From NCBI RefSeq assembly GCF_026210795.1, contig NC_089433.1, forward strand, positions 5,456,001-5,520,000: a stretch of DNA of 64,000 bases, given 5' to 3'. The stretch comes from Rhizophagus irregularis. Lineage: Eukaryota. The notes beneath the pieces are model-generated. The model saw only the letters and a program-made list of their open reading frames with translations. It made no database searches and was not told where the DNA came from. The position numbers and the translations under genes were made by a program. Below, piece by piece: positions 3,085-59,552 of this stretch (the stretch's first letter is position 1; each line of letters starts with the position of its first letter).

Positions 3085-5058
<1,974 letters not shown>

Positions 5059-9093: not shown

Positions 9094-12168
<3,075 letters not shown>

Positions 12169-26560: not shown

Positions 26561-27370
26561 TGATTTGGCAATATTCCAAAATGATAATTAATAAAAATAA
26601 GAAATATAAGATTATAAAAATCATTATATATATTACTCGAACTTTGATTTTTCTTTAATAGTAAATGAAATGGTAATAAATTTATCAAAAAAAAAAGAAT
26701 GGTAATAAATTAGTACAAAAAGATTTAGTTTTAAAGTTTAATAATTTTAAAAAGTTAAATTGTAATACACATAATAAGATTCATATTATCCTATTGGTAA
26801 ATTTATTTTTAAAAAATGTATATACCTTATGATAGGACCCCGCTTACTTATAATAAAAGTCACTGTAATTCTAAGGTAAAACCATTAAGAAAAAAATTTT
26901 GATGACGATCCTACTATAAATAAATAAATTATATCTAAAAAAGGAAATATTACACTGCATTATTATAATTTTTTTCCTTTTAAATCAATTAACCAATAAT
27001 ATTAAGAATTGGAGTAAGGTAAAATTACTAGTAAATTTGAAATTTTTCCTGGAAACCTTTATTAGAAGTAAGCGGGATCCTCTTATGATTTTAAATTTAT
27101 TAATATTTTTATAATACAGTTTGAAGAATTAGTAGATTGTATGTAACATCATAATGTTTTTCAAGTTTTTGATAGTTGCTTATCAAATTTTTAATTTTAA
27201 GCTTATATACAGTCAACTCTCTTTATAGTCACACATTTGGGACAGTCCATATTTGGTGATTATAAAGAGATGTGACTATATAAAAAATTTCTTATATTTG
27301 TATATCATAATTCCGGCCAAAAATTAACATAATTTTAGCCAGAATTATACTTAAACCTTTATTGTATCGT

Positions 27371-27891
27371 AACTTCGCCAATATTAATCGTAGAGAGATG
27401 ATCTTACCGCCATTCGATTCGTCTTGATGAGACGGTTCTAATGGTATAAAATACGTCGAAATCCAATCACTAGATTAATTTCCGAAATTAAAAAAATATT
27501 AATGGTTTTTGTGTGATAACTCTGTTAATATTGATCCTAGAAAGTCGATCTTACTACCATTCGATTCGTCTTGATGAGACGAATCTAATGGTATAAAATA
27601 CATCGAAATCCAATCACTAGATCAATTTCCGAAATTAAAAAATATTAAATGGTTTTTAAGTAATAACTTCGTCAATATTGATCACAGAGAGATGAGCTTA
27701 CCACCATTCGATTCGTCTCGATGAGGCGATTCCAACGAGCTATAAATCATCTTTTTACAATCACTAGGTACCGAGAAATCTAGCAAAATGTTAAATGGCG
27801 CAGTAAACGTAAATCAAGAAATATTATAATGCCGATGTTTAACATTTTGTTGAATAACTCGTCAGCCAGTGATCGGAAAAGGATAAAACTA
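27371..27891 (+). repeat. Internal tandem repeat with 147-bp period and palindromic core; the 4th unit is split by the insertions and resumes at 37089
   Basis: Units start at 27371, 27518, 27665 and 27856. Each has CCATTCGATTCGTCT..; unit 2 forms the hairpin TACCATTCGATTCGTCT-TGATG-AGACGAATCTAATGGTA (27555-27593). Confidence 0.9.
27875..27891 (+). repeat. 17-bp target-site duplication GGAAAAGGATAAAACTA, copy 1 of 4
   Basis: Identical copies at 27875, 35736, 36068 and 37072; the base 3' of the copies varies (A, G, G, C) and copy 1 differs on its 5' side. Confidence 0.95.
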
Positions 27892-28030
27892 AAAAGAATA
27901 AAACAAAAACTCTCTCCCGTTCTGCTCACTTGACAATATTTACGAAAAAAATAAAAAATTTTTTCGGAGTTTTTTATTACTTTTTCTTTATAATTTCTTT
28001 ATTTTAGTTAACTACTACGACACTTTACAA

Positions 28031-30043
28031 ATGGGTAAAGATAACAAAAAGAAAAATAACCAGTCTAACAAAGATACTACATCTAAACGTCCTGCCTCTA
28101 GCTCTCCAACTGGCAACGTTTCTGGTCAAGGTTCCTCTATGTCTGGTCCTTCGAACACCCCACCTTTGACCACCTCTACTAATAAACGTACCAGAGTCAG
28201 TGCTGAAGACTCTGTCATGGATGTTGATAAACCTCTCACGCCTCCTGGCCCTGTTGAGACAACTTCCGCTGAGCTACCTTCTCAACCTGATACCTCCTCT
28301 CTTGATGCCTCTCAACACGCCCCTAGCGATAAAGGCAAAAGCCCAGATATTACTCCCGCAGTATCCTTCCCTGAACGTGCTGCCTCCCCGGACGCGTCCC
28401 AGGCTGCAGTACAGTCTCAACCTACACTTTTTTACGCCTCGGCTGCTCCTAATGACGTCGAAGGCTTTTGGACTCACTTCGCTTCGAACCGCGACGCGTG
28501 CGACGCGGTTGATAGGCAACTTTCCTTGTTTCCCTCTTATGGTAGTCGTGCCACGTGTAGTGGTTCCAACGATTTGAAGAGGATCATCGTCCACTTCCGA
28601 AAAAAGGATGATCTTGACAAAGCCACAGCTTCCGCTATGGATTCCTTGTTTGGCTTGCATTTCCATGCATATGACCCCCAGGCTATTAAGGCAGATGAAC
28701 ACGCGCGTACCCTGGTGGTTACCGATATCCCCCTTTTTATAACTGACGCTCTTTTGCGTGGTACTTTTTCTCGTTACGGCAATATTACTCGCTGCCATAC
28801 CCGTTTATCTAAACTTTATCGTACTGCATACATTACCTTTGAATCTACTGGTGCTTTACGGGACCTCGACTCTACCTGGGGCGTCCTTTGTGGAGGACAT
28901 TGTTTGCGTATCTGCCCCGCTACCTTCTCACCTGACCAACGTGCTGAAAGACGCGCTTATGTCGCTTTACTTGCCGGTCTTCCGCGTGGTACTATAGCGG
29001 TCGATCTTGCTGAAATTGCCGATGAAATTTCCGCTAAATCTGTCAATGTTCCCTTCTCTATGAATTCCTACAATCCGAAACCTTACGCTTATTGCCATTT
29101 TGCCTCTGAAACGGCTATGGAAAACGCTAAATCTATTTCATGTGCCCTTAAGAAAGTTGGCCTTACCTGGCATTCTCCGGATGAAGTTACTTCTCTTTGT
29201 CATCGATGTGGTCGCCCGAACTGTAACCCTGATCGATGTGGTTCTTCATCTAGACCCAACCGCCCTCCTCGCCCTTGGCAATCTAATGATAAATTACGTG
29301 CTTTATATAACAAGCATTTACCCCCTTCTCATCCTGCTAAACGACATAATCGTTTCGCTCGCCCTGATAACGCTGATGATGGACAAAGCCGTGCCAATGC
29401 TTCTCGCCATCGTTCAAAATCCAGACCCAATACCCGACAACAATCTCGTTCTCGTTCTCAACGTCGCCCATGGAATCGTGACAATCTCAATAACAATAAT
29501 AATGCTCAACGCCGTCGCATTCCTGATGCAAATGAACTTGATTACTATATTGATGGCATGGATGTTACATACCCTGCTCCTCCCACTGTGCTCACTGATT
29601 GGAAATCTATTGGTGCTGCTCTTGAAAAAGTAGTTGAAGAATTAGCCCTTCTTACCACACAATTTGCTTCTATGAACAGCCGCATCACTAATTTGGAATC
29701 TGCTATGGCTGCTCGTACTCCTATTCCTGGACCTTTTGTCGCTAAACCTTCTTCCTACATCCCTTCCTCTATGCAAGGATGGGATGATACAGTGAATCGA
29801 ACTGATAATAATATCCTCGTTGATATTAATTCTCCACCTTTGCAATCAACAAGTGGTTTTTCCCCGATTCCTCATTTTGCTCCCATCCCACCTTCCAATG
29901 TCGCTCCTTCCTCCCCTATTGATATGGAACAGCGTCTCTCCTCTCTTTCTGATACTGTTGCCTCTTTGGCTGGTTCTATTAAAGAAGGAATCCAACAAAA
30001 CAACCTCATCTTGGCTCGGCAACAAGGCCAAGCCAATCAATAA
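28031..30043 (+). CDS. LINE ORF1 (gag-like): RRM-like domains, Cys knuckle, Arg/Ser-rich region, coiled coil
   Basis: Intact 670 aa; RTLVVTDIP..FSRYGNI..TAYITF (RRM-like), KPYAYCHF, CHRCGRPNC, RSRSRSQRR, heptads LEKVVEELALLTTQFASMNSRITNLE. Confidence 0.88.
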   Translation: MGKDNKKKNNQSNKDTTSKRPASSSPTGNVSGQGSSMSGPSNTPPLTTSTNKRTRVSAEDSVMDVDKPLTPPGPVETTSAELPSQPDTSSLDASQHAPSDKGKSPDITPAVSFPERAASPDASQAAVQSQPTLFYASAAPNDVEGFWTHFASNRDACDAVDRQLSLFPSYGSRATCSGSNDLKRIIVHFRKKDDLDKATASAMDSLFGLHFHAYDPQAIKADEHARTLVVTDIPLFITDALLRGTFSRYGNITRCHTRLSKLYRTAYITFESTGALRDLDSTWGVLCGGHCLRICPATFSPDQRAERRAYVALLAGLPRGTIAVDLAEIADEISAKSVNVPFSMNSYNPKPYAYCHFASETAMENAKSISCALKKVGLTWHSPDEVTSLCHRCGRPNCNPDRCGSSSRPNRPPRPWQSNDKLRALYNKHLPPSHPAKRHNRFARPDNADDGQSRANASRHRSKSRPNTRQQSRSRSQRRPWNRDNLNNNNNAQRRRIPDANELDYYIDGMDVTYPAPPTVLTDWKSIGAALEKVVEELALLTTQFASMNSRITNLESAMAARTPIPGPFVAKPSSYIPSSMQGWDDTVNRTDNNILVDINSPPLQSTSGFSPIPHFAPIPPSNVAPSSPIDMEQRLSSLSDTVASLAGSIKEGIQQNNLILARQQGQANQ

Positions 30044-30092
30044 TTGTTCTCTTTTTCCCCCTTCTTTATTACCGATTTATCAGTGTGTAATA

Positions 30093-33000
30093 ATGATGGA
30101 CAACAATAAACATAATTTTTCCCCTCACCCCTCTCCCCTTATTAAATTTGGTCAATTAAATGTTAATGGTTTATGTTCCCCAGTTCGACAACAACATTTG
30201 CTTAATTTTTTTCTTCACTCCTCCTTTGGTGCTTTATCTATTAATGATACGCGTCTTTCCCCTTCAAATGCTAAATTTATTTTTAAAAATGAACACTCCC
30301 AACATCACTTTAAGTCCTATTGGGCTTGTTCATCTTCTTCTTCTCGCCCTCATGATGGTGTTGGTATTTTATTACGTAATCCCCTTCATAAACATGTTCA
30401 AACAATTGATCCTTGGAACGGTCGACTTCTTAAATTAGATTTGTTCTTTCATCAAACTAAAATTTCTATTATTTCTGTATATTATCCCCCTTCCGGCTCT
30501 GTTCATCAATCTATTTGCAATGATCTTATTGCCAAACTTCTTTCTTGGCTCGATTATGCCCGAGCTAATAATTATTTTGTAGTTATTCTTGGCGACTTCA
30601 ATGCTGATGTAATCGCTCATTCTAATTATTCACCTAATCATTTTAAGCTTCTTCGCTTGCTTTCCTCTCGGTTTTTTACCGATCATCAAGCTCACTCCTC
30701 TACAAATGGTCCTGATCCCACTTTCTTTCATGATAATGGATCTTCTCGACTGGATTATATTTGGTCTTCGCCTGGTTTTCCTGCCCCTGGTCTTTTTTCG
30801 CAAGTGGTTACTTGTCCGAATCTTTTTGATCGACCTTTCACCGACCACAAAGTTCTTACAACTGTTTTTGACTTTAATTCTTGTCTGGCCATTTTGGCTA
30901 AATCTCGTCTTAAACAAAAAAAAGAAATGCGTACTATTTTTTCTTATGCTTCCACTTCAGTTGAACAATGGAATAATTTTACCGTTGAAGTAGATGATTC
31001 TCTTGGAGTTTATTTAGATAGCCATTATCGCCCTAATTCTGATTTCTCTTCCCTTTCTCTTGATCGTATGTGGCATGCATTGAAAGCTGCCATAATTAGT
31101 GCTGCAATTGAAACATTACCCTTTCAAAAAGTCTCTAATACACACCGACATTCGTACTCTCCTGAATTAACTAAACTTATTGCTATTAACAAGTTTTTAG
31201 ATCGATTTTTATATCGCCTTACTACTCGTCGCTCTAATCGGCCCGCTCAGATTGCGCAAATGACTGCTGCCTTGCCTTCCCATCTTGAGAACCTAGCTTC
31301 CTTACTTCCTGATTATTCAGTTCCTACCTATTCCACCACCCCTGCATCTGTATTTAAATCGTTTTTACGATCACAGAAAAGTTTAGTTTCTGCCTTTTTG
31401 TCTACTAAATTCGCCCAACACCTTACGGACTCAGTGGAATACTATACTGCACTACGTGACGAACATTTTTCGACTTCACTTGGCTCATTTATAGATTCTG
31501 CCTTATCAGTAGAAAAACGTTCGATTATTCTTGACCGTATCCTGGTTGTTCTGGACTCAACTCCTACTTTATTAACGGATCCTTCGGATATTAAACAAGC
31601 CGCTATTTCTCATTTTCAATCGATTGTTTCTCCCCCGTTGGTCCACTATTCTTCCATCACTTCATTTCCCGCCCGATGGCAACAAGCTTACACTCCTCTT
31701 GCAAATGTGTCTGCTTCATTATATGATCCTGTTTTGGCGCCTATTTCTCTACAAGAATGGTCTGCTGTGATTTCCTCCATGCCAAATAACAAAGCTTCCG
31801 GCCCTTCAAAAATTTCTTATGAGATGATTAAACATCTGTCCGGTGAAGCCTTGGATTTTTCTCTCTTACTTGCCAATACCTGCCTTTCTCGCGGTGATAT
31901 TTCTGCTGACTGGCGTGAAGCTGTGGTTTATCCTATTCCTAAACCTCACGATTTTGATGCTCAACTGAAGAACACTCGACCTATTACCCTTTTGGAAACA
32001 ATTCGTAAATGTGTAGTTAAGGTCGTTACGAATCGTCTTTCTAATATCCTTGCTGATGGTAAAATTCTTCAAGGAGGTAACTTTGCTGGTTTACCTGGTG
32101 GTTCCACTGATGTCCCTATCAAAATGCTCGACGCGATTATTCATCAACAGAAGCATGACTCTACTGATGATCAAGAACTATGGATCGTTTCTCAGGATAT
32201 TTCTAAAGCTTTTGATTCTATGGATCTAAATATGCTTAAATTAGCTTTAGAAAGATTACATATTCCTGCACTTTTAGTGCGATTTATTTTAAATCTTTTT
32301 ACACGACGAAATAATAAGATAATTACTTGTCATGGCGATACAGCTGCTTACAGAGTACGTGTTGGTATCGATCAAGGAGAAATCATTTCCCCTCTTCTTT
32401 GGGTTATTTATTTGGATCCTTTACTTACTGTTTTGAATCAACAAGCACGAGATCCCTTTATTTTAAAATCTTCAGCCCTTTTAAATTATTCTCCACTTGA
32501 ATTTGAACAACATTCTTTACCGGTTTCACATTTAACGTTTATGGATGATTCTACACTCATTGCTTCTTCAAAATCTGGCATAGAAGACCGTCTTTCTATT
32601 ACTGCTGAATTTTATACTTTAAATAATGTTCAAGCTAATTCTGCGAAATATGTTCTCCTTTCATCCTCTTCCCCCTCCTCGAAGATTATTTTTGATCTTT
32701 CCCCTTCTCCTTTAGTTCCCATTCCTTCCCTTTCCCTTTCTTCTTTATCTGTTAAAACTTCGTTTCGTTTTTTAGGAGTATGGTTTTCTTTATCTGCCTC
32801 TTCTGCTTTTGTTCTCAGACAAGTGCGCTCCATGGTTAAAGATATGGCAGCTCTCCTGGGACCGAAGAAATTATTAGCACAGCATGTGGCCTATCTTTAT
32901 AATGCTGTCCTTCTTCCGCGATTGGAATTTCGCCTTCAAACTACCCTTTTTTCTGAAAGTACTATTCAAACAATTGTCAAGCCTATGTTTTCGGTACTTC

Positions 33001-35481
33001 GAAGAAAAGCTGGTCTTGCTGCGACTACCCCGTTACCTTTATTATTCCTTAAACTTCCCTTTTCTATTCAAAATGCTTTTTATCGCTTTCTTTCTTCCCA
33101 TATTGCATCTTGGCAAAAAATCTTCACTCACCCTGATTTCAAAAATTTTGCCCTTTATGCTATCTCCTATCTTCAAGGATATTTGGGTGCTGAGAGTTGC
33201 CCGACTACTATCAACTTAGAACCATGGTCACAAATCGTTTCTTTGCGAACGCACACTTTGTTTAATTCGTTATTGTTTTCTTCGCGTTTGAACATCACGT
33301 GGTCTCTTTCCTTCCGGCCTCCGAGGCATGATCTACAACCTGCTCTGCCACTCCGATCTATTCTACCTCATTCCATCTTTCAATCAAGTTGGAAACTTTG
33401 GAAAAACCTGAATATATTTGTGCTTGCTCAGTTGGTTTCTCCTTGTAGACGTTATCTTATGAATTGGCCTGACCTTCGTTATCTTGGCATCGTTGGTCGT
33501 AAAGGACAGATTCCTAATTGGTTTACTTTTATCAATAATAATTTTCTTTCTTCTTCTTCTTCTACTTTACTTTTATCTTCATATTTTATTAATTCTTCTT
33601 TTACTTTAGCTTTTCCTTGTTTATTAGATCATACTGTTAAAGATTATTCTTTTTATCCTCAATGGGCTATTAATCTTGACTCTGCTACCCAAACTTTATC
33701 TGTTGGTCGTGTGTGTATCACCTACAAGAAACAAAACTCGGCTATTATGTCGCATTGGCTTCCTGTATCTCCCTCGGCTGATGAACGATCCTATAACCCT
33801 TGTCCTGGTTGTGCTCTTAACATTCCTGCCTTATCCAAGAAATCTGCTATCAAACAACGTTGTAATAGTGAGAAGTGTTTTTTCAATATCACCCTGTCGG
33901 AAACTGTGGGTTACCCTACTAGAAACGCCAAAGTTTTTGCGGCCTACCTCCCCATCACTCTTTCTACTTCATGGAGTTATGCCACGTCCTTGGCCCTTGT
34001 TCATTTGATGAACCCGCCCTCAACCGCTTCTTTCACCCTTTCTCCTTCTGTTAAGGACAATTTAGATGATGATGTTTTGCCGTCTTCTGTGCAATCTTTG
34101 TATACCGATGGCTCTTTCCGTCCTGCCAATGATTCTTTATCCTCTTCCATGGCTTCTGCTTGGATTGCGCTCGATGATGATGGATTTATCCTTGAATCTT
34201 CATCCATGCATCTTCCCTCTTGTTTTCCTTCGGCTCTACGTTCTGAAATTTATGCTGTTTTATTAGGATTGACCGCCCTCTCCCGTGATTCTTCAATTTC
34301 TATCTATACTGATTGTAGTCAGTTAATTTCATTATGGACACGTTTTGTTGATGTTCCTTTCTCACCGAAGTTGCTTCGAGAACCTAATCATCTTCTTTGG
34401 CTTTCTATTCGACAACTTATTATGGATCGTAACCTCCATGTCGATTTGATTAAAGTCCCTGCTCATGGCGATGACATTTATAATGTACAAGCGGATTCTT
34501 TGGCAAAAGATGCTCATTCATCTATACAACCTTCTGTTTCGCCTTTGGCATTTTGTCATGCTCCATGCTTGTTAACTTTTAATTCTTTACCTGTTGACAT
34601 GAATATTCGTCACTTTCTTCGCTCTATAGCAGACGCTCGTGCTCTTTTATCTTTTTGTTCATTGGCACGTTTTACTGCTCTTGGTTCTCCTTCACTTTTT
34701 GATTGGGCTGGTATATATTTTTGCCTTTCACAAATCAAAGGTTTTGCTTCACATAAGAATGGTCGTCCGGAATTCTGGATCTTCCGTATCAAACTCCTTT
34801 TGGATATGTTGCCTACCTTAACTACTCTTCAACAACGCAAACCTTACTTATACTCTCCTGACTGGCTTTGTCCGCAGTGTAACTCTGCTCCAGAAGATTT
34901 GAATCATCTTTGGACTTGTCCTTATATTTTACCAGAATTAAACCCTTGTTTAACACACCGGTCTGAAGTCATTAAATTTAGAAATTCTTGTTTATCTTCC
35001 TTTCTATCCTTGAAATCTTTGGATATTTCCTTTCAAACTGAATTTTTTGCTTTGGAATGTTGGAACTATGAAGCTCCTTCTTTATCCTGTCTTTGGCTTA
35101 CTCGAGGATTGTTGCCTGCACATTTAACGACATTTTTGAATCAACACTTCTCTCTCTGTTATATACAAGACTATTTCTCCCCTTCTTAATGACTTCCAAG
35201 TCGAATTATATGGTGAAATTTGGCTATGCCGGAATGTTCTTTTTCATGCTTGGGAAGAGTCGCAGGGTATCTCGGCTGCTTCCAAATTACGTGGCCCTTC
35301 TACAAATTCTTCTTCTTATACTATCTCTCCTCATCGTCACGACTCCTCTTTGGCGACAGTTTCTCAGGATTCCTGGATTTCTTGGATATCCTCTTCTATA
35401 ATTCGGGGTGGATCATGGATCTCGCACCTGGATTTTCTGCGCCGCTTAACAGTTCAACCTCTTAGGATCTCTTTCTGGTAA
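30093..35481 (+). CDS. LINE ORF2: APE endonuclease, reverse transcriptase, RNase H, CCHC finger; one frameshift near 35155
   Basis: APE: NVNGL, GVGILL, GDFN, SRLDYIW, TDH. RT: RPITLL, QDISKAFDS, GIDQGEIISPLLW, FMDD, FLGVWF. RNase H: YTDGS, RSEIYA, YTDCS, VPAH, NVQADSLAK. CCHC: CPQCNSAPEDLNHLWTC. After the TC run at ~35149-35157 another frame continues VIYKTISP..EIWLCRN..RISFW* to 35481. Confidence 0.95.
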
Positions 35482-35735
35482 CGGACTGGATTTTTGGATG
35501 TTGGATAGTTGACTCACACTGGCCTTCGGGTAAAGTTGGGGTATGCGATTCTGTAATAGTTTAGTTTTTCTTTGCTTTAATTTATTTTAGTTTAGATTTC
35601 TTTACTTGTATGAGTCGTGAAGCTACTCTTTTTTATTTTTTATTAGTTTATTTTCTTATTTTTGTAATATTGTTCGATGTTATTTTCGAAGTTCTAAATA
35701 TAAATAAAAGATAAAGTCGTAAGACTGTTTGCACA

Positions 35736-35752
35736 GGAAAAGGATAAAACTA
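35736..35752 (+). repeat. 17-bp target-site duplication, copy 2
   Basis: GGAAAAGGATAAAACTA directly after the LINE 3' end. Confidence 0.95.
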
Positions 35753-36067
35753 GCCTAAAATGGTGGTATGGAAGGGTACTAGATGGTTGATGTTACCTGT
35801 CGAAAGTCCTCCATGAAAGTAGATGCTCTCTAAAAGGTCGTTGAATAAATTGAGTATCGTATCGTACAATGGGTATAGGATGAGTAGGCGGCGTGTACTG
35901 CTTCAGATCGGCCTAAATGGCCCGAAGGGGGATGTCTTATAGTGGTGCTGTTACCTGAGGAATTAAGTACTCGGTTTAATAGTTGCCCATTGAAGATGAT
36001 AGGACACAGACCCGAGATTAGTCGCTAAGAGGCGAATGGGTGGTACGGCCGTAAAAGCACTTGCAAA
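35753..36067 (+). mobile_element. 5'-truncated copy of the structured SINE-like element
   Basis: Aligns by eye at roughly 90% to 36763-37071, shares the CACTTGCAAA 3' end, and is bounded by the 17-bp duplication. Confidence 0.9.
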
Positions 36068-36084
36068 GGAAAAGGATAAAACTA
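36068..36084 (+). repeat. 17-bp target-site duplication, copy 3
   Basis: GGAAAAGGATAAAACTA between the two SINE-like copies. Confidence 0.95.
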
Positions 36085-37071
36085 GGGTTGGTCACCCTAT
36101 CTTGGTGGTTAGTCGAGACCATCCGTTAAGCCTGAGTATGGTGAGGTTGCAGGTTCGATTCCCATGACCACGGAAATAAAAAGAATTTTACTGCGGACGC
36201 TACAACCAATAGCGTGAAGGTACAGGGATTAGTGTAGTTGGTTTACTGCATCATGGTGAATTAGTGTGTACAGTTAGGCCGCGGCATTTCAGGGGCGTAA
36301 GGGTCATGGTGCCTTCTTAACGTCCCTATGAGGCCATTGGCATGTGCGCAGTCCTGTCCATTCGAGGTCGCTACTATACCGGGGTGGGGGGACTTCCTGT
36401 GGGCTGGTGGTCACTCTGCGATGCCGCTTGGGGTCAGTAATGGCTAGATGGTCATCCATAGATGGTAAAGCTGAGGGTGCAATGTCTTAGTGGTAGTTAG
36501 ACTTCTGTTAGGTCTTAGGAACCAACCAAGGTGTTCGTGCACAGAACAGGTAGCATGGCTATGGGGTTCGATTCCCTACTCCTTGGGTCCTGGTTGGTTG
36601 ATCCCTGGTGGTTGATACCCACCATAAGGGGTGATCCTGGACAGATGCCTGCTACTTCCTGTCTGAGTGGTCACTTACAAAGTATACCACTTGGGGTAAA
36701 CAACTGTACTATCGGTGCTAGGTAATCGCGGGCTGTAGTGGCGCTTTGAGTGAGACTTAGTACCTAAAATGGTAGTATGGAAGGGTACTAGATGGTTGAT
36801 GTTACCTGTCGAAAATCCTCCATGAAAGTAGATGTTCTCTAAAGGTCGTTAAATAAATTGAGTATCGTATCATGCAATGGGTATAGGATGAGTAGGCGGC
36901 GTGTATCTGCTTCAGATCAGCCTAAAATGGCCCGATGGGAGATGTCTTATAGTGGTGCTGTTACGAGGAATTAAGTACTCGGTATAATGATTGCGCATTG
37001 AAGATGATAGGGCACGCCGAGATTAGTCTCGCCAAGAGGCAATGGGTGGTCTGGCCGTAAACACTTGCAAA
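36085..37071 (+). mobile_element. Full-length 987-bp tRNA-headed, structured SINE-like non-coding element
   Basis: Box A-like TATCTTGGTGG (36098) and box B GGTTCGATTCC (36152); TGGTCA/TGACCA acceptor-like stem; about 50% GC against an AT-rich background; many hairpins; no run of 5 or more T; no credible ORF; bounded by the 17-bp duplication. Confidence 0.85.
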
Positions 37072-37088
37072 GGAAAAGGATAAAACTA
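37072..37088 (+). repeat. 17-bp target-site duplication, copy 4
   Basis: Followed by CCACCATTCGATTCGTCTC, the continuation of host repeat unit 4. Confidence 0.95.
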
Positions 37089-38023
37089 CCACCATTCGAT
37101 TCGTCTCAGTGAGACGATTCTAACAAGCTAGCGACACATCTTTGTACGATTATTAGATGCCAAGTTATTTAATATATTCTTTATATAACCGTGATTATAA
37201 ACGGTTCTTTTTAATATAAGATTTTTGAGGATAGGTGTGATAGTGACTATAGATAGATTGTGACTATATAGGATAGATTTTAATAATAAAGTGTTTTGAA
37301 CATTCAACTGGTGTGACTATATAGTAGAATGTGACTATAACGGGAGTGACTATAGAGGGAGTTGACTGTAATTGCTTTACTTAATTTTTTACTTAAATAC
37401 AGGATTCTAAAAAATATATGAAACTGGAATCTGATTTTATATAATGAAACTGGTTTAATAACTCAAAGTTTGATTATTTGTATAGTAACCAATTGGCAAT
37501 TTAAAAGTTAGATATTTATTAATAGTTTGTTGATATTAATTAAATTATTATTTTTATATGTAATTTTTATTTTAAATATAATACTAATAAGATTTATAAT
37601 TATAAAAATCAAAATATTAAATATAGAATTTTATGATAATTTTAAATATAATGATTTTCTGTTAATATTAATTTACTTTACCTTAATAAAAATTAAATTT
37701 TAAAGTTTTTAATGAGTGAAAAGTAAGGTAAATTGCATATAACTTAAAAAAATGAAATTTAAAAAACTATATCAATATTTATATTAATGTAATTTTTGGT
37801 GAAATTTAAGGAATTAATCCAGGATATTATACAATTACTGGACTAGCATTATGTATATTGTTTGTATTTTTTAAAATAAGTACTATATATATAGTATTAA
37901 AACTTTACGTAATCTGTTAGAACCCTAAAGATCTACAAATGTGTCACAAAAGAAAAAGGGTATAGGTCGAGGAACCCTTTTTTGTTACCTGAAAGATATA
38001 TTTTAACGTTCCTTTTCTATAAT

Positions 38024-38700: not shown

Positions 38701-41700
38701 TTACATTTGACTGTTCCATCCCTGGATTTCGGGGACAGCCACTTTCTTCCCCTTAAATTCTGCTATCCCTCGGATCCTCCTACCACCAGCGATTATAGCA
38801 ACCGGCACAGCACTTGGTTGACCGGTGGTCAAAGCCGCTTTCTGTTTTTCATTCCCTTGATCCATTGGCATAATTCTTTCGTCGCATAAGGGACATTTAT
38901 AATTGGCATCGGTATTCTCAACTAATTCTTGATATTTTTCTGATGTGATGTCTTCATCACACCTTATATGGATCCACCTATCACATACATCACAGCAAAT
39001 CATTTCTTTATCATCTTCATTTTCTTCTCCATCTTCGGAATAAGTTTTCAAGCACATTGGACAGAACCTATCTTCGGAGAAGTTGAAATTGCATTTGTTA
39101 CATATCGTTGCCAAGTATATTGGAAATTTTGTTGATTCAGATGTTGCCTCCGCATGATGATAGTTGTTAGCAGCATCATTCAGCGAGATAGCTTTTTCTC
39201 CGCATGAATTGCATTGGGCACAAAGTGAACACAACCATGGGCCTATATTAAAAAAAAAATGTTATGATAAAGACTAAGGTGACTTAAATAAATCCAATAA
39301 ATTTCTTTACCTTGGGGAACTTCGGTAACTTTGGGATCACTACAATCAAGATGCCAGCCACGGTCACAGTCGTCGCAGATTAGAAGTGTTGATTCGTCTT
39401 CAGAAGAATGACATTTAACACAACTTTTGCAATCATTACATAGCCAAGAATATCCTTCCATTGCAATGATAGGTCGTGGGGTTGTAAGGCCTATGCAAAG
39501 CGGATGATACTTTCTTAAGCAATTTGCACATTTGCTCTTATATTCTTTTGAACATGATGCACCAGTACGGGGTACGGTGGCGTCAGGAGCAGTAATTGAA
39601 AAACATATCGCGCAAGAATTCTCAGGGAGAACGGGTAAAGGTTGAGCTACATTTGGAGTAGGTGCAACAACCGCGTAATTTGATGTAGCAACGTCATTTG
39701 ATAACTACAACAATAATTGTATATACTAATTAATGATAAAACGATAAATTTTGATTCACAAATTTAATATATTTTCTTACCGGGACTATACTGGAACCTA
39801 TTACAACAGGTTTAGTTCTTTCTAAGGTATTTCTATCCGAGGTTGCTTCAACATTTATAGGGTCACGCGGGTGTCCCTTATGATACATGCACCTGTCCCC
39901 CTCGAAAGACACCCCGCGTTTGCAAGGTTGTCCAGTTGTTGCGGTCAATACACCACAAATATACTGGGGAGGTGCTTTTCCAGTCGTATACTGAAACCTA
40001 TTCATAATATTACTTGTCTAAAAAAAAAAAAATAGAATATAAATTGTTTGAGAAATTATCATTAATATACTTGAAAAGTCTTGACGTACCGGATCAGGAG
40101 TATAATAGTAACGCTGTTCATATGGAGTCTCATTAGCATCATGTGACATAACAGATGATGGTTGCGGGGCAATTTCTTGGTGAGAGGCAACGGCCGAAGG
40201 GTGGTTTAAAACTCTGGGAAGATCTTGACCAAATCTTGTACGGTGACTATATCCATTTTATAAATCAGAGTATTAAATTAGTTTATAAAGGAAAACATGT
40301 TACAATTAAAAAATAATTACTTACATTGGATACCTATGTTGAAATTGGCCATCCATTAATGTCATAGGATATTTTTCCTCATGAGTTTGTCGTGTCCCCT
40401 CCTCCATTTTCATACTGTCAATAATCTGTCGGATCTCATGAGGTAAAACCTCCAAAACTTCTGGATTTAGCGTGCCAAAAGGATTGTGAGGGACCGTTTC
40501 AAAATGAATATCTGGATCCTTTGTTGCTATCGTAATATCACTTGATAGTGGTAATACTCTCGGCTGTGATAAGGCTTCAACTCGTATGCACGTAGGCTGA
40601 GTTGCCTGAGGTACTTGATCGATATTAGTATGAGGATCATAAAATCTTGGTTTTTCTTTCCTATGAATCTTTAATCTAGTATTATAATCTCTTGTCGATA
40701 AAGCTGTTTGATACATCCAATTTGTCTTATTGACAACTTTACGTGGTTTTGAACCCAAATATACTCGTCTTGAAAGAATATTACTAGCATTATCTGCTCC
40801 TGATGCCTCCCCTTTGTCACTCAGATCATCATCATTAAATCTAATTGATGATTCATAATAATCATCTTTCCTTCTTTTCCCCCCTACAATAATTTTCGAC
40901 CCAAACAGTTTGTACGTAGCTCTAGCTGAAACAAGTGTAATCGCTCTGCTTCTGAAATTTGATGGCAAAAATCCATGCGTGATAAGGTAATCACGTTCTT
41001 GATCTGTCGCATGTATTCGTTTCAAAGTTGGGTTCCGTAAAAAGAACAAATAACTGTCCCGAAAACCTAATAGTTTTGCAGGATCCATAGATAACATGTA
41101 CCAGATGTTTCCTCGAGATGGTAATTGAAAAACCTGTACTTTAAATTTACGACCACCTAATAACTCCCCGTCTTTCGTAATTTTTTGTTCCCCCTTTTCA
41201 TCAAGTTTACCATCATCTTCATCGTTATTGTTTCCTCCTTCAGCTTCATCAGCCTCCATTGGTTGTGTCGTTATCATTTGTTGAATTTCAACATTATTTT
41301 CGTCTGTTGGCTTATTACGTAATGTAGCATCGCCATTAACTTGCTTGCTCGACACTTCTAATTTCTTTCGACGTTTCGTATCAGCGTCGTCTTTCGTTTT
41401 CTTTCTACGTTTTGTGACACCACCATCATCTGCCTTTTTTTTACGTTTTGTGCTAGTAGGTGTGTTAATAATATTGTTAACAGATTCAGGATGCTTACGC
41501 GGTCGACCTGGTTTACGTTTTATCGGAGTTATAACTGTAGCCGTTGGCTGTGAAGGCTCGGGATTAACAGTATAACGTATTCTTAATCTCGGTTGCGGTG
41601 TTGGCTGTTTTTCTTGAGAAGTCTGATCAATGTCCATATCCATATTTGAATCTGTAGCAGTGGTATCTGTAATAGTTTGTGGAGTTTCTACTTGCTCAGT

Positions 41701-42871: not shown

Positions 42872-45800
42872 ATGAACGTCTTAAAATCTTTAGGCAAATT
42901 AATTTGGGGTAATTATGGGGGAATTTAGTGTTTGTTATAGCCATTGATCCATTAATTATAAAATAAATAAACATTTTATATAGGAAACCCTGATAACCCC
43001 GAACTCATAAAGATAACAAATGGAGAACTTTATCTTGTTAGACCAAATTTTAGTATAAAGGGAACCCGAGAGTGCATGTACGTGGTCTGATATTACGTTA
43101 CGCGTTTATCATGGAATAAATCCTTATATTTATATTATGAATTCAATGATTTCTTAGTTTTCATACCGCTCAAGCTACTGTTCGACGTACCGGAACAGAA
43201 TGGCAGTATCATATAGTGATCAGTAGGGTATTTGATGAAGGTGAAGAAGAGTTAGAGTTGCAAGATGAAGAAGAAGAACGTACGTGATCATTTTTATATT
43301 TCATTTTAGTTGAAAAGAATGACTAATTCTTTTATGATTGATTAGTCGAAGAAGAAAAGGTGTTCCTTATTGATGAATCTTTGAAGTTTCGTAAAGGACA
43401 AATTGAAGGATTGACCACATTTTCTTGGAGAGACTTATCCGGCGTAAGCATGACAGTATACTAATACTATATTTATGTATAAATATAATGCCTATTGATC
43501 TATAAGTCAATCTAATAAAATAGGATCCAGATGACTTATTCGAATTTGTTTGTGACATAAGTGTTACCGCGCATACTGTCAATGCTTTTGAATACACGGT
43601 ATATAATTGTATGTTTGAACGTAAATATCGAAAATCTAGAGATGAAGCGACTGAACAGGATATTCAAAGTTTTATTTTCGAGTGGGTTTTATTTTTTTAT
43701 TTTTTATTTATTTTTGTAGCTTATATAGCAAAATATAAATATCGCCAATTAATTATTAATTTATCCATTATAGCACAGAACTAAAAATAGATCAAAATGA
43801 TAAATCGCCCCCGTCAACTCCGAAGAATAGGTCTAGTTTTAATAAATCATTTACTACACCGACATCTGCTAGTACTACTCCAATGAAAGCGCGAAACATA
43901 GAAAGTCCATCTACTCCCACAAAGACTAGCATCAAATTAGAACTTCCTGGTGGTAGTTCATCGAAAATGACTTCAATTATAGATGTTGATGTTGAATTAC
44001 ATGTTTTCGATCCGAATACTGCTACGTTCTTAACGCAATCACCTCTAGCAACAGCGAGTATATTGAAAGGGAATAATTACGAATGTATCCTTACCATCTT
44101 TGTTAGAAAAAAATTTTTTTTTTATATACATGATTCTTGACACATAAAATTTATTCACAGATTGGCTTAATATCGAGGATGATAATCAAAGGCATGTAAC
44201 ACAGAAAATAGAGCCAAGAATGAATCCTGTGTTCAATTCAGTAAGCATCTTTGGAGCTATCGAAGGTTTCATTGTTTGGATTGAACATTAACATTTTTTC
44301 TTTATTTAGACACAACATTGTCTTATATGGGTTTACTTCGATGGTAAATTTCTATCGTTTCAATATATTACACAGATTAATGTCAGAATATAATAAAATT
44401 AAACGCTAAGGATATTATTCTGTAGGATTGGATCTGGTCTATTCCTTTTTAATTAAATTTCAGAACTTAGATAACGAAACCAACTTCAAAAAAAAATTTA
44501 CTTTAGCAATGTATGAAACTTTAAATGAAACGAAAGCCAAAGTTTGTATATCTTCAAATCTACGTAATTTATTGATGTTATTTAATGTCATTGACGTCCT
44601 ACTTATATTAGGAAGAAGAACAAGAATATCTTATGAATGCTTATCTAGATGAAGATGTTGAAATGGTCGATGCTGATGAAGAGGACTCGGAAGAAGGTAC
44701 TATGAATAATTACAATATATCATTCTTTTTTTCGGTTTTTATATCTATACTTCAAAACAAAATAGAAACAGGTTCCTCAGATGAAGACGACGATAACGAT
44801 ATTATTAACACTGAAAGTAAAGGAGACAATGTTAATACACAACTTTCTGTTGGGCAAAAGCTTGACAGATCCTTTATTCTTAAGGGCAATAAAATTGGTG
44901 TATTCAAACACACCGATGATGATAAGATAGAATTCACTAACAATATAGACAATATTTCTAAACCTCAGGGGAAGAAATTCAATCCTTCTAAGGTTATATT
45001 TCAATTGATTGTTTGAAATTGTATATTCATGAAGATATTTACGTATTACTTCTTTTTGTTGTAGATGATGTTGCATGAAGGAGATTCCAATATGATCCTG
45101 ATGGATGAAAATGACGAACATAGCCTTTTCAAGATGGACCTAGAATATGGCAAAGTAGTAGAAGAATGGAAAGTTCACGACATAATACCCGTTGAGAATA
45201 TTTTTCCTATAAATAAATTCGCCCAAACAACGGGAGAAAAATCAATTCTTGGTTTATCATATAATTCGATATATAGCATCGATCCTCGATTGCCAAATTT
45301 TAAATTGGTAAATGAGAAACGTCGGCAATATGTTACAAAAAATGATTTTATCAGTGGAGCTACTGACGCGAGTGGTCATATTGCCGTGGGGACTGAAAAA
45401 GGTGATATCAAACTATTTGATTCACTGGGAAAGATTGCAAAAACCAATTTGCCTGCCATGGGAAGTGCCATTAAAGGAATCGACGTGACTTCTGATGGTA
45501 AATGGTTGATTGCCACTACCGATAAATATTTACTGCTGATAAACACAGAAATTAAATCTGATCCTGAGGGCAGAACAGGATTTAAAAAAAGCTTTGCGAA
45601 AGACGAAAAGGTATTTTATTTTGTTAATTCAATATTCAAATAATAATGCAAATTTTATATAATTATTTATTCATTCTGTATTAGCCAAAGGCGAAAACAC
45701 TTCAGTTGAAGCCAGAACATTTAACTATTATGGGACATGATGTAAGCATTCGATCTTGTGTGGCTTGTTCTATAATGCATGATGAGTTCTTTTACTCATA

Positions 45801-56111: not shown

Positions 56112-59100
56112 ATGGACCGAAAACAAATTGTTAGCACAACCCAACCCGAGCCGGTTAATAGTAAAGAATATATATCAAATGAACAAAAACTTATACCAGA
56201 GTTCTCTTCATTTGAACATCAAAAAGAGAATATATTACCAATAAAGCAAGGTAGAAGTGCCGCTACCTTATCTCAGATATTTTCAAGTGAACCTTCCACG
56301 CGTAATGCAGAACTTCAAGTTGGCAATAATAAGTTTAATGCAGAGCTTGAAAATCTTGATGAACTTGATGATCCCTTTGACGTGTATGATCGTTACATAA
56401 AATGGACAATGGAGAATTATCCGCAAGCATTTGGTCCTCATTCAAGAGTATGTCAACTTCTGGAGATCGCATCAAATAAGTTTGTAAATGATGCTCGATA
56501 TAAAAACGATCCTAGATATTTAAGATGCTGGCTACAATATTCGAAACATGTTGGAAAACATAAAGAACTTTTCGCATTCTTGAAATCTAATGGAATTGGC
56601 TTAGACCTGGCCACTTTTTATGAAGAATATGCTGAGATAATGGAAACGATGAAATGGTAAGATATTGTTCTTTATAATTTAAAAATTGATAAAGACTAAA
56701 AATATTAATAAAAATGAAAGCTATAAAGAAGCAAACGAAATCTATGAAACGGGAATAAGCCGTGGAGCACAACCGCTTGAACGTCTGAATAAACGCTACA
56801 AACAATTTTTAACGCGTATGACGTTAATGGATGTAAACCTTAACACTAATACTGTAGCAATACCAACACCACCAATACCGCAACAATTGAATCTAAATTC
56901 ACGAACAATTCTTGGCTCTAAATCTTCCTCATCTTCTACCCGATCACAGCCAATGAATGTTTTCCATCAAAGGAACCCTACTTCATATACTGTCTCCGAC
57001 ATTGAAAATGCAAGTTCACAAATTAGCACTTCCGACAACAATGAAAAATTAAATATCTTCTACGATCCTAATGGCGAAATAGGGAATTCTGCTTTGTCAT
57101 CCACAAATAGTAAAACTTCAATATGGAATAGTTACGGAACTTATTTGTCTAGGAAAAAAGAAGATATTCAAGAAGCAGAACAATGGAAAGGCGTAACTTT
57201 GCCTCAAAATAAAAAGGTTCACGCCCCGATGGCGGCCAAGCTTGAAATTTATCACGATAAGGTATACAGAAAAATCATACGTCAATACCTTGTTCTGTTA
57301 ATTTTACGTTTATACTGGTTTTTTTTTAGTCAATTGAATGTAGTTCAAATTCGTCAACAAATATTCGTCAAGCTACTGAACAAGTTGAAATACAGTCATT
57401 GAATAATAAAAACAATTGTTTGACGGAAGCTCTTAAAAAGTTAGTGGATATACAGAATAAACATGAAATATCTTCGGATATAGCTCAAACAAAGTCAAGT
57501 CAGTTTTCGCAGAATGAAAATAGTAACAAACCACAGCCTACATCTTCGGTTTCTCAAGAGAAAAAACAAGCTAAACGATACGAATTAGGGCCGAAAGAAA
57601 AATGTTGTGTAAAAATCGATAATTTTTATGGTGAAAATGGCGAAGAAATTTCCTTTGAAGAAAAGAGAGCTAAAACTTTGGGGTATCTTGAAAGTAATTA
57701 CAGTGAAAAGGTCGAAGAGAAGTTAGGAAAAAGAGAAAGTAAGGTTACGGAATTCAGTGTACCAATTCACGAGACAAGTCCAATACGTAGGTTTTAAATT
57801 ATTTACTCTTTGCAATTGATATGTTTCTAATCCAATTTCTTACGGCAAATCTTAGCTTCATATATAGAAAAAATTGAGAAAAAGCCATCCCCCACGATAT
57901 GTACAAGGGCTGCTTTATCAGACATAATAGAAATGTTTACTTTTACTCAACCGTTAAAAGACCTCCAAAATAATGATGATGATGATGAAAAGAAGACTTC
58001 AAATTCCAATGTATATCAAACAACACAATCTGGTTATCATCAAACCCCTTCAAGGACGAACGGATGTAAGGTAAATGATCAAGAAAATGATGTAAACAGT
58101 ACATCACTAGATTTAATTAACCGTGAAAATAAAGCGAAGTTCTTTGACCCTATGACGCCAATACAAGAAACAAGTCGTGAGTATAAGACTACTCCATTTT
58201 ATACATCCGAAGAATTTAATATTATGAATGTAAGATCTTTTATAAATACACCCAGAGTCGATGATATTAAGCTTGATTTGGCATCTCCAATGAAATTAAC
58301 AGCAGTAGATCACGAATCGAACATGCTAGAACCTCCTGCTTTTCCAAAGCTTTCGAATCCATGTAATCCAATTGATCCCAAAGTTATTGAACAAATTTTA
58401 GCCGCTTTACAACCTCCATTAAATCATTATAAAGGATTTTATGACGCTCGAAAACAGACTTGCAATAATGGATCAAAAATAGAGAAACTTGCACGTTGCT
58501 GGGACACACAAGGCCGACGATGTACAAATGTTTCAGTAAACATTGAAGAACCCGTTACATTCTTTAATGATTCATTTCTTATACGCCAAAAAATCGGAGA
58601 AGGCGGATTTGGCAAAGTCTATCTCGTTTTGGACACAGAAGATTATGCAGTTAACCAAAACGAAAAGAAATCATCACGTGCATTAAAGAGTGAAACACCT
58701 TCAAGTGCCTTGGAGTTTTACATTATACGTAAACTGCAAGAAAGAATCAACTCCCCAACTATTGATTCTATTATTTCTGTACATTCATTGTATTATTACA
58801 AGAATGAAAGTTATATGGTGATGGAATTTGTTCATCAAGGAACGATTTTGGATGCCGTTAATCGAGCTAAAAGGGAGAATACACAGTTAGACGAACTTTT
58901 GGTATTTTTCTTTACAATAGAACTATTGAAAACAATTGAGTCGATTCACGAAGCAGGAATAATACACGGTGATATCAAAGCTGATAACTGCCTGTTGAGA
59001 TTAGAACCGGTAGAAGAGTGGGATATACAATATGATCCATCCGGTGCGAATGGATGGTCAAAGAAAGGAATCAAAATAATTGATTTTGGGCGTTCTATTG

Positions 59101-59552
59101 ATGTGACTTTATTTCCAGACGATATGAAATTTATCGCTGAGTGGGTGACTGATGATCAAGATTGCGTTGAAATGCGTGAAGGTAGGCCTTGGAAATGGCA
59201 GGCTGATTATTATGGATTGGCTGGTATAGTACACTGCATGCTGCATAATCGATATATGCAAATTACTCCAGTATTAGTAGAAACAAATACTTTTATATCT
59301 GGACCAGCGACAATGGCAGTGAAGAAATATAAACCAATACTTTCATTTAAACGATATTGGCAAGGAGAGCTTTGGCAAAAATTATTTGATTTGTTGTTGA
59401 ATCCTTTATTGGTGACGAAAGATGGTCAAATGCCAATTACACAGCAATTAAAAAATATTCGTGAGGAATTTGAACAGCATCTAATACAGAATTGCGAAAA
59501 AAATGGAAAAAGTTTAATTGGAATGTTGAAGAAATTAGAAAGGAATCGGTAA
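56112..59552 (+). CDS. BUB1: Spindle checkpoint kinase Bub1
   Basis: KENILPIKQGR (KEN box), TPR region YKNDPRYLRCWL, GLEBS EEISFEEKRA, PSPTICT, kinase IGEGGFGKVY..HGDIKADN..IDFGRSID. Confidence 0.95.

Follow-up and report, generated by a model that had tools for sequence, protein, structure and literature searches.

A candidate target-specific LINE/SINE pair stacked at one 17-bp site of a DNA transposon in Rhizophagus irregularis

Introduction

In crocodilians, long interspersed elements (LINEs) of the Tx1-Mar type and the short interspersed elements (SINEs) called SINEU-3 insert in Mariner-N4_AMi, a non-autonomous DNA transposon (Kojima 2015, PMC4494074). Here we describe a similar arrangement in the fungus Rhizophagus irregularis, within a 64-kb stretch of contig NC_089433.1 (positions 5,456,001 to 5,520,000; referred to as the window, with coordinates counted from its first base), where one LINE and two copies of a SINE are stacked at a 17-bp sequence. 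As in the crocodilian case, LINE and SINE probably share as their target a non-autonomous transposon bounded by terminal inverted repeats (TIRs); the crocodilian target site duplication (TSD) is 16 bp long, tandem SINEU-3 copies likewise sandwich a TSD, and truncated copies there show independent insertion (PMC4494074). The crocodilian elements, by contrast, belong to the animal Tx1 clade and their SINEs have heads derived from small nuclear RNA, whereas the locus described here has a LINE of a fungal lineage with an RNase H domain and a 987-bp tRNA-headed SINE. It also differs in that possibly two sister LINE families use two sites of one host.

In Xenopus, Tx2L/Tx2D is a pair akin to Tx1L/Tx1D. 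Tx1L resembles our LINE in being a sequence-specific LINE inside a non-autonomous DNA transposon, Tx1D; it differs in being an animal element with a piggyBac-type host, and no SINE partner is mentioned where PMC4494074 cites it. Drosophila R1 and the R2/R1 SIDEs also form tandem insertions, separated by a 14-bp TSD and with non-autonomous partners interspersed, but their target is 28S ribosomal DNA and, in place of a tRNA-headed SINE, they have as partner a ribozyme-headed deletion derivative that depends on co-transcription (PMC3414825). Among fungi, MoTeR1 and the defective MoTeR2 build mixed head-to-tail arrays separated by target repeats, and FoTeR and Cnl1 are further site-specific elements without long terminal repeats (non-LTR elements; PMC7367193, PMC12857005). 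The MoTeR elements differ from those of the window in their restriction-like endonuclease (REL) and telomere-repeat target, MoTeR2 being an internal-replacement derivative and not a SINE. An initial annotation of the window pointed to site-specific LINEs with an APE endonuclease as precedent, but left the closer ones (SINEU-3/Tx1-Mar, R1/SIDE arrays, MoTeR1/MoTeR2) unnamed.

A curated R. irregularis transposable element library holds SINE, LINE/L1-Tx1, L1-R1 and I families (Oliveira and Corradi 2024, PMC11075540), and the LINE and SINE of the window are probably already among them. The main text of that paper has no occurrence of 'target' or 'nested' as whole words. Two transposon surveys of arbuscular mycorrhizal fungi list SINE and LINE families without, in the text available, describing target specificity (PMC11075540, PMC11952901). 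Our literature search, which did not extend to Repbase, subscription papers or the published library sequences, found no target-specific LINE or SINE described for Glomeromycota; those sources may hold these families.

Results

Three insertions at one 17-bp sequence within a DNA transposon

The 17-mer GGAAAAGGATAAAACTA occurs four times in the window, each time exactly and on the plus strand, at 27875, 35736, 36068 and 37072. When up to three mismatches are allowed, six matches are found versus 0.85 expected, a number that 0 of 100 shuffled sequences reached. The four copies bound inserts of 7,844 bp (the LINE, 27892..35735), 315 bp (SINE S1, 35753..36067) and 987 bp (SINE S2, 36085..37071), all on the plus strand. 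The first copy (27875-27891) ends the left part of a diverged repeat unit (27845..27891, plus strand), the right part of which, with the hairpin CCACCATTCGATTCGTC..., follows the last insert (37089..37190, plus strand); the other three copies, all exact, are TSDs (35736..35752, 36068..36084 and 37072..37088, plus strand). With the inserts removed, a fourth 147-bp unit is restored, reading GATC, the 17 nt and then CCACCATTCG, and it aligns without gaps to three uninterrupted units upstream (27359..27799, plus strand). Exact matching and sizing of the inserts thus bear out the four bounding copies reported in the initial annotation, as the alignment does the restored unit, with the qualification that the upstream units lack the 17-mer: their 17-nt counterparts are identical to it at just 9, 7 and 8 of 17 positions, which makes a single diverged type of unit the target, as opposed to the 147-bp repeat in general. 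TSDs on both sides, the absence of LTRs and the presence of 5'-truncated copies are features of non-LTR retrotransposons (LINEs). The arrangement is a real, well-formed feature and, as judged from sequence comparison, the 17-mer is target DNA and not an element end.

Each insertion had also been proposed to regenerate its target. This is correct for the duplicated core and only partly so for its flanks: after insertion the left 17-mer copy retains GATC/GG and the right copy CTA/CC (the slash marks the nick), and neither retains both original nick contexts.

The target was originally described as sitting in a repeat unit, which it does, while the TIR-bounded DNA transposon that encloses the unit was overlooked. 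Inverted repeats of 25 nt, 92% complementary and with TA at both outer ends, enclose the repeat units and the array. The left TIR with its TA lies at 27208..27232 (plus strand) and pairs with 37346-37370; the right end (37240..37370, plus strand) comprises five copies of the subterminal repeat GTGACTATA and the right TIR with its TA. Each 147-bp unit has a hairpin (z about -3.2). Without its inserts, the host element is a non-autonomous DNA transposon of 962 bp, and its TIRs stay intact around the 10-kb composite. The host has TIRs flanked by TA, as do non-autonomous elements of the Tc1/mariner-pogo type, and its TA/CAG ends make this its putative superfamily; no autonomous partner was identified.

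The LINE

The LINE, which we call family A, has no poly(A) and ends in GTCGTAAGACTGTTTGCACA. ORF1 (28031..30043, plus strand; 670 aa) carries an RRM domain (PF00076, E 9.3e-7) followed by a Cys/His-rich motif, and ORF2 (30093..35481, plus strand) encodes an APE endonuclease (PF03372, E 7.6e-10), a reverse transcriptase (RT; PF00078, E 7.4e-18), RNase H and a C-terminal CCHC-type motif, the composition of an APE-type LINE. A direct Pfam scan of the window's ORF2 did not list RNase H; the domain after the RT is recognised by PF00075 on close homologues and by a profile match to the RNase H structure 3h08 (E 2.4e-7). The endonuclease is N-terminal, which separates the element from the REL-type elements (MoTeR, Cnl1, R2) with their C-terminal restriction-like endonuclease. 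In a CT run near 35150-35160 the frame of ORF2 changes, so that the listed ORF stops at 35189 while the conserved C-terminus continues in another frame to 35481; this reflects either a genuine inactivating mutation or an error in the sequence.

The top 80 of 110 ORF2 homologues are all named Rhizophagus irregularis (best 94%). An RT tree of 31 rows, from which 3 chosen rows without a full RT were excluded, separates family A from a sister family B, with an RT identity of about 80% and an endonuclease identity of about 71% between the two. Both share a long branch with mostly Rhizophagus sequences, a Glomeromycota-rich lineage. The best Protein Data Bank match of ORF2 is human L1 ORF2p (profile, E 1e-32). 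Protein comparisons thus point loosely to L1-like proteins, L1 being the nearest solved structure, which does not amount to a clade assignment.

Two details of the LINE are recorded here as side observations. Its first bases (27892-27909) match the target core at 12 of 13 nt, and this target-like 5' end may be what remains of an older duplication that was picked up by upstream transcription. At residue 52 of ORF2 (counted from 30093), families A and B have Asp, and more distant families Asp or Glu; the human L1 endonuclease has the Glu of QETH at this position, which binds metal.

The SINE

S2 is full-length, has a tRNA-like head and ends in CCGTAAACACTTGCAAA; S1 is 5'-truncated and equivalent to the last third of S2. 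Against the last 309 bp of S2, S1 is identical at 288 of 306 aligned positions (18 differences). The S2 head contains an exact B-box, GGTTCGATTCC, at 36152 and an A-box-like motif at 36103. It gives a weak Rfam match to tRNA-Sec (17 bits, E 5.3), and ARAGORN found no tRNA in it. No ATG-initiated ORF of at least 60 aa is present in S2, which is therefore non-coding.

The 3' ends of LINE and SINE are alike (GYCGTAA...TTGCAMA, no poly(A)), and one LINE variant in sequencing run X14 ends in TTGCAAA, identical to the SINE end. Thus S2 is non-coding, multicopy and TSD-flanked and has a 3' end in common with its partner LINE, as tRNA-derived SINEs do.

The initial annotation had called the SINE structured, a description that folding calculations do not bear out: the 987-nt RNA is no more stable than shuffled sequences (z -0.08; 7 of 20 shuffles fold equally well), only 1 of 15 sliding 120-nt windows has z < -2, and the 3' ends of the elements fold no better than shuffles either. 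A second, B-box-like GGTTCGATTCC motif (36565) lies within a predicted multi-arm fold with a 7-nt-loop hairpin (36520-36600). This part of S2 looks like a second tRNA-type module, with a shuffle z-score that is not significant. There is no run of five T (T5) inside S2, the first after the SINE start being at 37208.

Copies in other sequencing runs

Contigs of four runs from four studies (X1, X3, X5 and X14) were aligned to 35670-37165; 15 of 46 joints and 24 of 840 loose ends were displayed, and the junctions below are from these joints. The LINE end with the 17-mer continues into a full SINE head in X14 (side 30) and, ambiguously, in X1 (side 18), into a SINE starting near 36126-36129 in X14 (side 48) and X5 (side 32), and into the downstream flank without a SINE in X5 (side 24). 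SINEs with internal deletions near the 3' end, 36863>37069 (side 59) and 35990>37052 (side 49-53), are each followed by the 17-mer and flank in three of the four runs. None of these forms occurs in the window itself. These junctions back the earlier proposal that one pair of nick positions was used repeatedly, by a co-targeted SINE as well.

Contigs running on into unlike sequence make up a share of 0, 0, 0 and 0.01 in the four runs. Many such run-on contigs would be expected from dispersed copies with unique flanks, so the near-zero share favours targeting. Summed depth at the 17-mer (36083) versus the SINE head (36103) is 151,719 versus 104,460 in X1, 169,482 versus 106,308 in X5, 123,452 versus 92,547 in X14 and 4,398 versus 4,395 in X3. 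Each run contains thousands of variant SINE contigs, and in all four the deepest-covered bin is the last 17-mer with the hairpin region, which fits a very abundant repeat, summed contig depth not being equal to copy number. C>T and G>A changes predominate among the copy variants of every run, an excess that would be expected for methylated repeats. RNA runs contain a small share of the sequence words (0.11 to 0.13); we do not count this as evidence.

A sister family and a second site

A set of 349 retrieved proteins was searched for element ends that had been translated by spurious read-through, and 82 of them extend to the ORF2 end or the 3' untranslated region (UTR). P0017 and P0193, isoforms from one family-B locus, read KDKVIRLFAH (LINE 3' end), NHQIY and GWSPYLSG (SINE head). 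The spacer between LINE end and SINE head in P0017 is 15-16 nt long and differs from the 17-mer. The same LINE-type end and SINE head thus flank a different spacer, so the spacer lies outside the elements; this contradicts the possibility, raised in the initial annotation as one that would undo its account, that the 17-mer is simply the elements' own end.

Back-translated, the P0017 spacer has a single exact match in the window, at 27249..27262 on the minus strand, in the left subterminal part of the host transposon, which makes this the putative family-B target. A match of this kind arose by chance in 34 of 20,000 simulated host-sized sequences (calculated post hoc). An assignment of the spacer to the 147-bp unit was dropped: it needs mismatches including a stop codon, whereas the subterminal site fits exactly. 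The left end of the transposon is, as a separate observation, an imperfect palindrome (27203-27285; 41-nt arms, 76%) containing the putative site.

A further family-B model, P0347, has exons from two 147-bp units, antisense and upstream of ORF1, which is the orientation expected if insertion was at the subterminal site. A supposed match between the P0347 linker and the host does not hold, because P0346 shares this linker, which is therefore LINE 5' UTR. Five gene models from three loci have an ORF2 end fused to a following ORF1, indicating head-to-tail LINE-LINE arrangements. Taken together, the gene models suggest one host transposon with separate sites for families A and B, which share a SINE, and a second family at a second site is probable.

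P0111, from a more distant family, is a gene model with two ORF2 segments, and P0196/P0197 are models with two LINE 3' ends in series, which suggests that stacking may also occur in other branches of the lineage.

Surroundings of the array

A second small TIR-bounded element (26829-27086; 32-nt arms, 84% complementary, 194 nt between them) lies about 120 bp left of the host transposon. Genes are found on both sides (3326-4063, 11105-11587, 40321-41643, 45065-45643 and 56112-59552), with the products UDP-glucose pyrophosphorylase, EF-G, Rsc7/Swp82, VID27 and Mad3/BUB1 with kinase. With ordinary genes on both sides, the array sits in a gene-containing region.

Discussion

Weighing the explanations

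The anatomy of the locus, its identical duplications, the tail-less 3' ends that LINE and SINE have in common (TTGCAMA) and the recurring junctions are seen directly in the window and contigs. What they probably reflect is target-specific retrotransposition into a DNA transposon by a LINE with a co-targeted SINE. A number of observations weigh against this. For the repeats at large, the contigs are short, none of those listed spans the stretch, and many joints have unknown letters between their sides; contig placements in all runs cover the right end of the LINE, the SINEs and the downstream flank. The support from joints, depth and run-on share is indirect and differs from copy-by-copy flank counts; for target-specific non-LTR elements, Kojima's criterion is that more than 20% of flanks are one sequence type. 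No empty 17-mer site is present among the 24 displayed loose ends, those before 37087 showing the non-target unit type, and the LINE family is large and on many contigs, which dispersed insertion fits too. For family B, the evidence comes from one locus among the 82 of 349 proteins, plus one of 29 with an ORF1 start, the gene models may be spliced, and the N-terminal extension of P0346 does not match the host element. Searches elsewhere added nothing: the SINE 3'-end pattern matched two loci in viral contigs and one in metagenome contigs, and the junction pattern one locus in prokaryote genomes, all four being chance matches with no similarity beyond the pattern itself. The ORF2 C-terminus gave five candidates in viral contigs, of which none was confirmed, and the junction-peptide searches gave no candidate for the left junction and 0 hits for the right.

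Dispersed insertion leads to an alternative that we consider unlikely, in which the LINE has a loose preference: the first insertion would be near-random, and later ones would be drawn to the existing element end or junction and copy the first duplication, irrespective of its sequence. The different spacers at the window and P0017 loci are compatible with this, as are TTGCAMA before every inner 17-mer copy, tandem LINE gene models at three loci and the size of the family. Yet both spacers map to one 962-bp host element, the 17-mer and its flank follow differing LINE and SINE variants elsewhere, and run-on contigs are almost absent. It is quite improbable that the array arose in a single event, by a reverse transcriptase jumping between RNAs that carry the 17-mer at their 3' ends by read-through. 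Such RNA is plausible for a SINE without internal T5, and R2 template jumps to small RNAs have been reported (PMC3414825), but donors flanked by the 17-mer would still be required, which is site specificity itself; in addition, S1 and S2 differ at 18 of 306 positions, other combinations occur in other runs, and the SINEU-3 tandems are read as sequential insertions (PMC4494074).

The intact TIRs around the composite, and joints common to several runs that may be one old locus, would also fit few real insertions followed by multiplication of filled sites through the host transposon or segmental copying. We find this very hard to credit, given that it leaves three elements at one base position unexplained and that at least two 5' truncation points (35753 and about 36126-36129) occur after the 17-mer besides the full-length form. 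A 17-mer belonging to the elements' own ends, or an assembly artefact, seems just as implausible. The resemblance of the LINE 5' end to the 17-mer (12 of 13 nt) speaks for the former and the frame change in a CT run, a frequent place for sequencing errors, for the latter; against them stand the exact register of the first 17-mer copy within the repeat unit, the different spacer between the same kinds of ends in P0017, and LINE/17-mer and SINE/17-mer/flank junctions in independent runs.

Proposed mechanism

Under target-specific retrotransposition, the LINE protein would nick one site specifically and also mobilise the SINE. By analogy with established target-primed reverse transcription, ORF2 would nick the bottom strand at GATC/GG, reverse transcription on the element RNA would be primed at the nick, and the top strand would be cut 17 nt further on. 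The duplicated core would remain usable, and later insertions would extend a head-to-tail array. No copy retains both nick contexts after insertion, so one nick must tolerate a changed flank; for comparison, the R1Bm endonuclease depends on about 5 bp to either side of its bottom-strand nick (PMC1919474). If the first nick requires GATC/GGAAA, arrays would grow at their left end. Among the variant rows displayed for the shared 315 bp, S2 alone is off-majority at 6 positions and S1 alone at 3, private differences that lean toward left-end growth and are too few to decide. Family B would do likewise at the second site, on the other strand, with one SINE using both sites, as two gene models imply.

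Given that there is no T5 before 37208, a Pol III transcript of the SINE would carry the 17-mer. We predict that it could pair with the nicked strand and so add precision at the RNA level; pairing between transcript and target has been proposed for SART1 and R1Bm (PMC7265360). A bolder version, tentative and on balance doubtful, would have the sister LINE families aim at two sites of one transposon and both deliver one SINE, whose site is partly set by target read-through of its unterminated transcript. This would be a natural, partly RNA-programmed and tail-less form of integration, in which about 1 kb of foreign RNA is written into a fixed 17-bp site and ordered arrays arise. The benefit to the elements would likely be a multicopy, dispensable landing pad.

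Significance

The architecture is known from animals; what is new is the fungal APE-RT-RNase H lineage, the long tRNA-headed partner and the putative sharing of two sites. The site-specific fungal non-LTR elements that we found in the literature (MoTeR, FoTeR, Cnl1) are, as described there, REL-type and associated with chromosome ends. If families A and B do have different targets, they would offer a small, naturally occurring comparison from which to learn what determines APE target specificity, a question still open in retrotransposon-based gene insertion. The stacked arrays could also serve as strain markers. If target-specific retrotransposition is the correct explanation, the locus would show that the 'transposon as safe harbour' strategy known from animals also exists in arbuscular mycorrhizal fungi, either as an independent case or as a very old one, and would account for how an abundant LINE/SINE pair could spread in R. 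irregularis without hitting genes.

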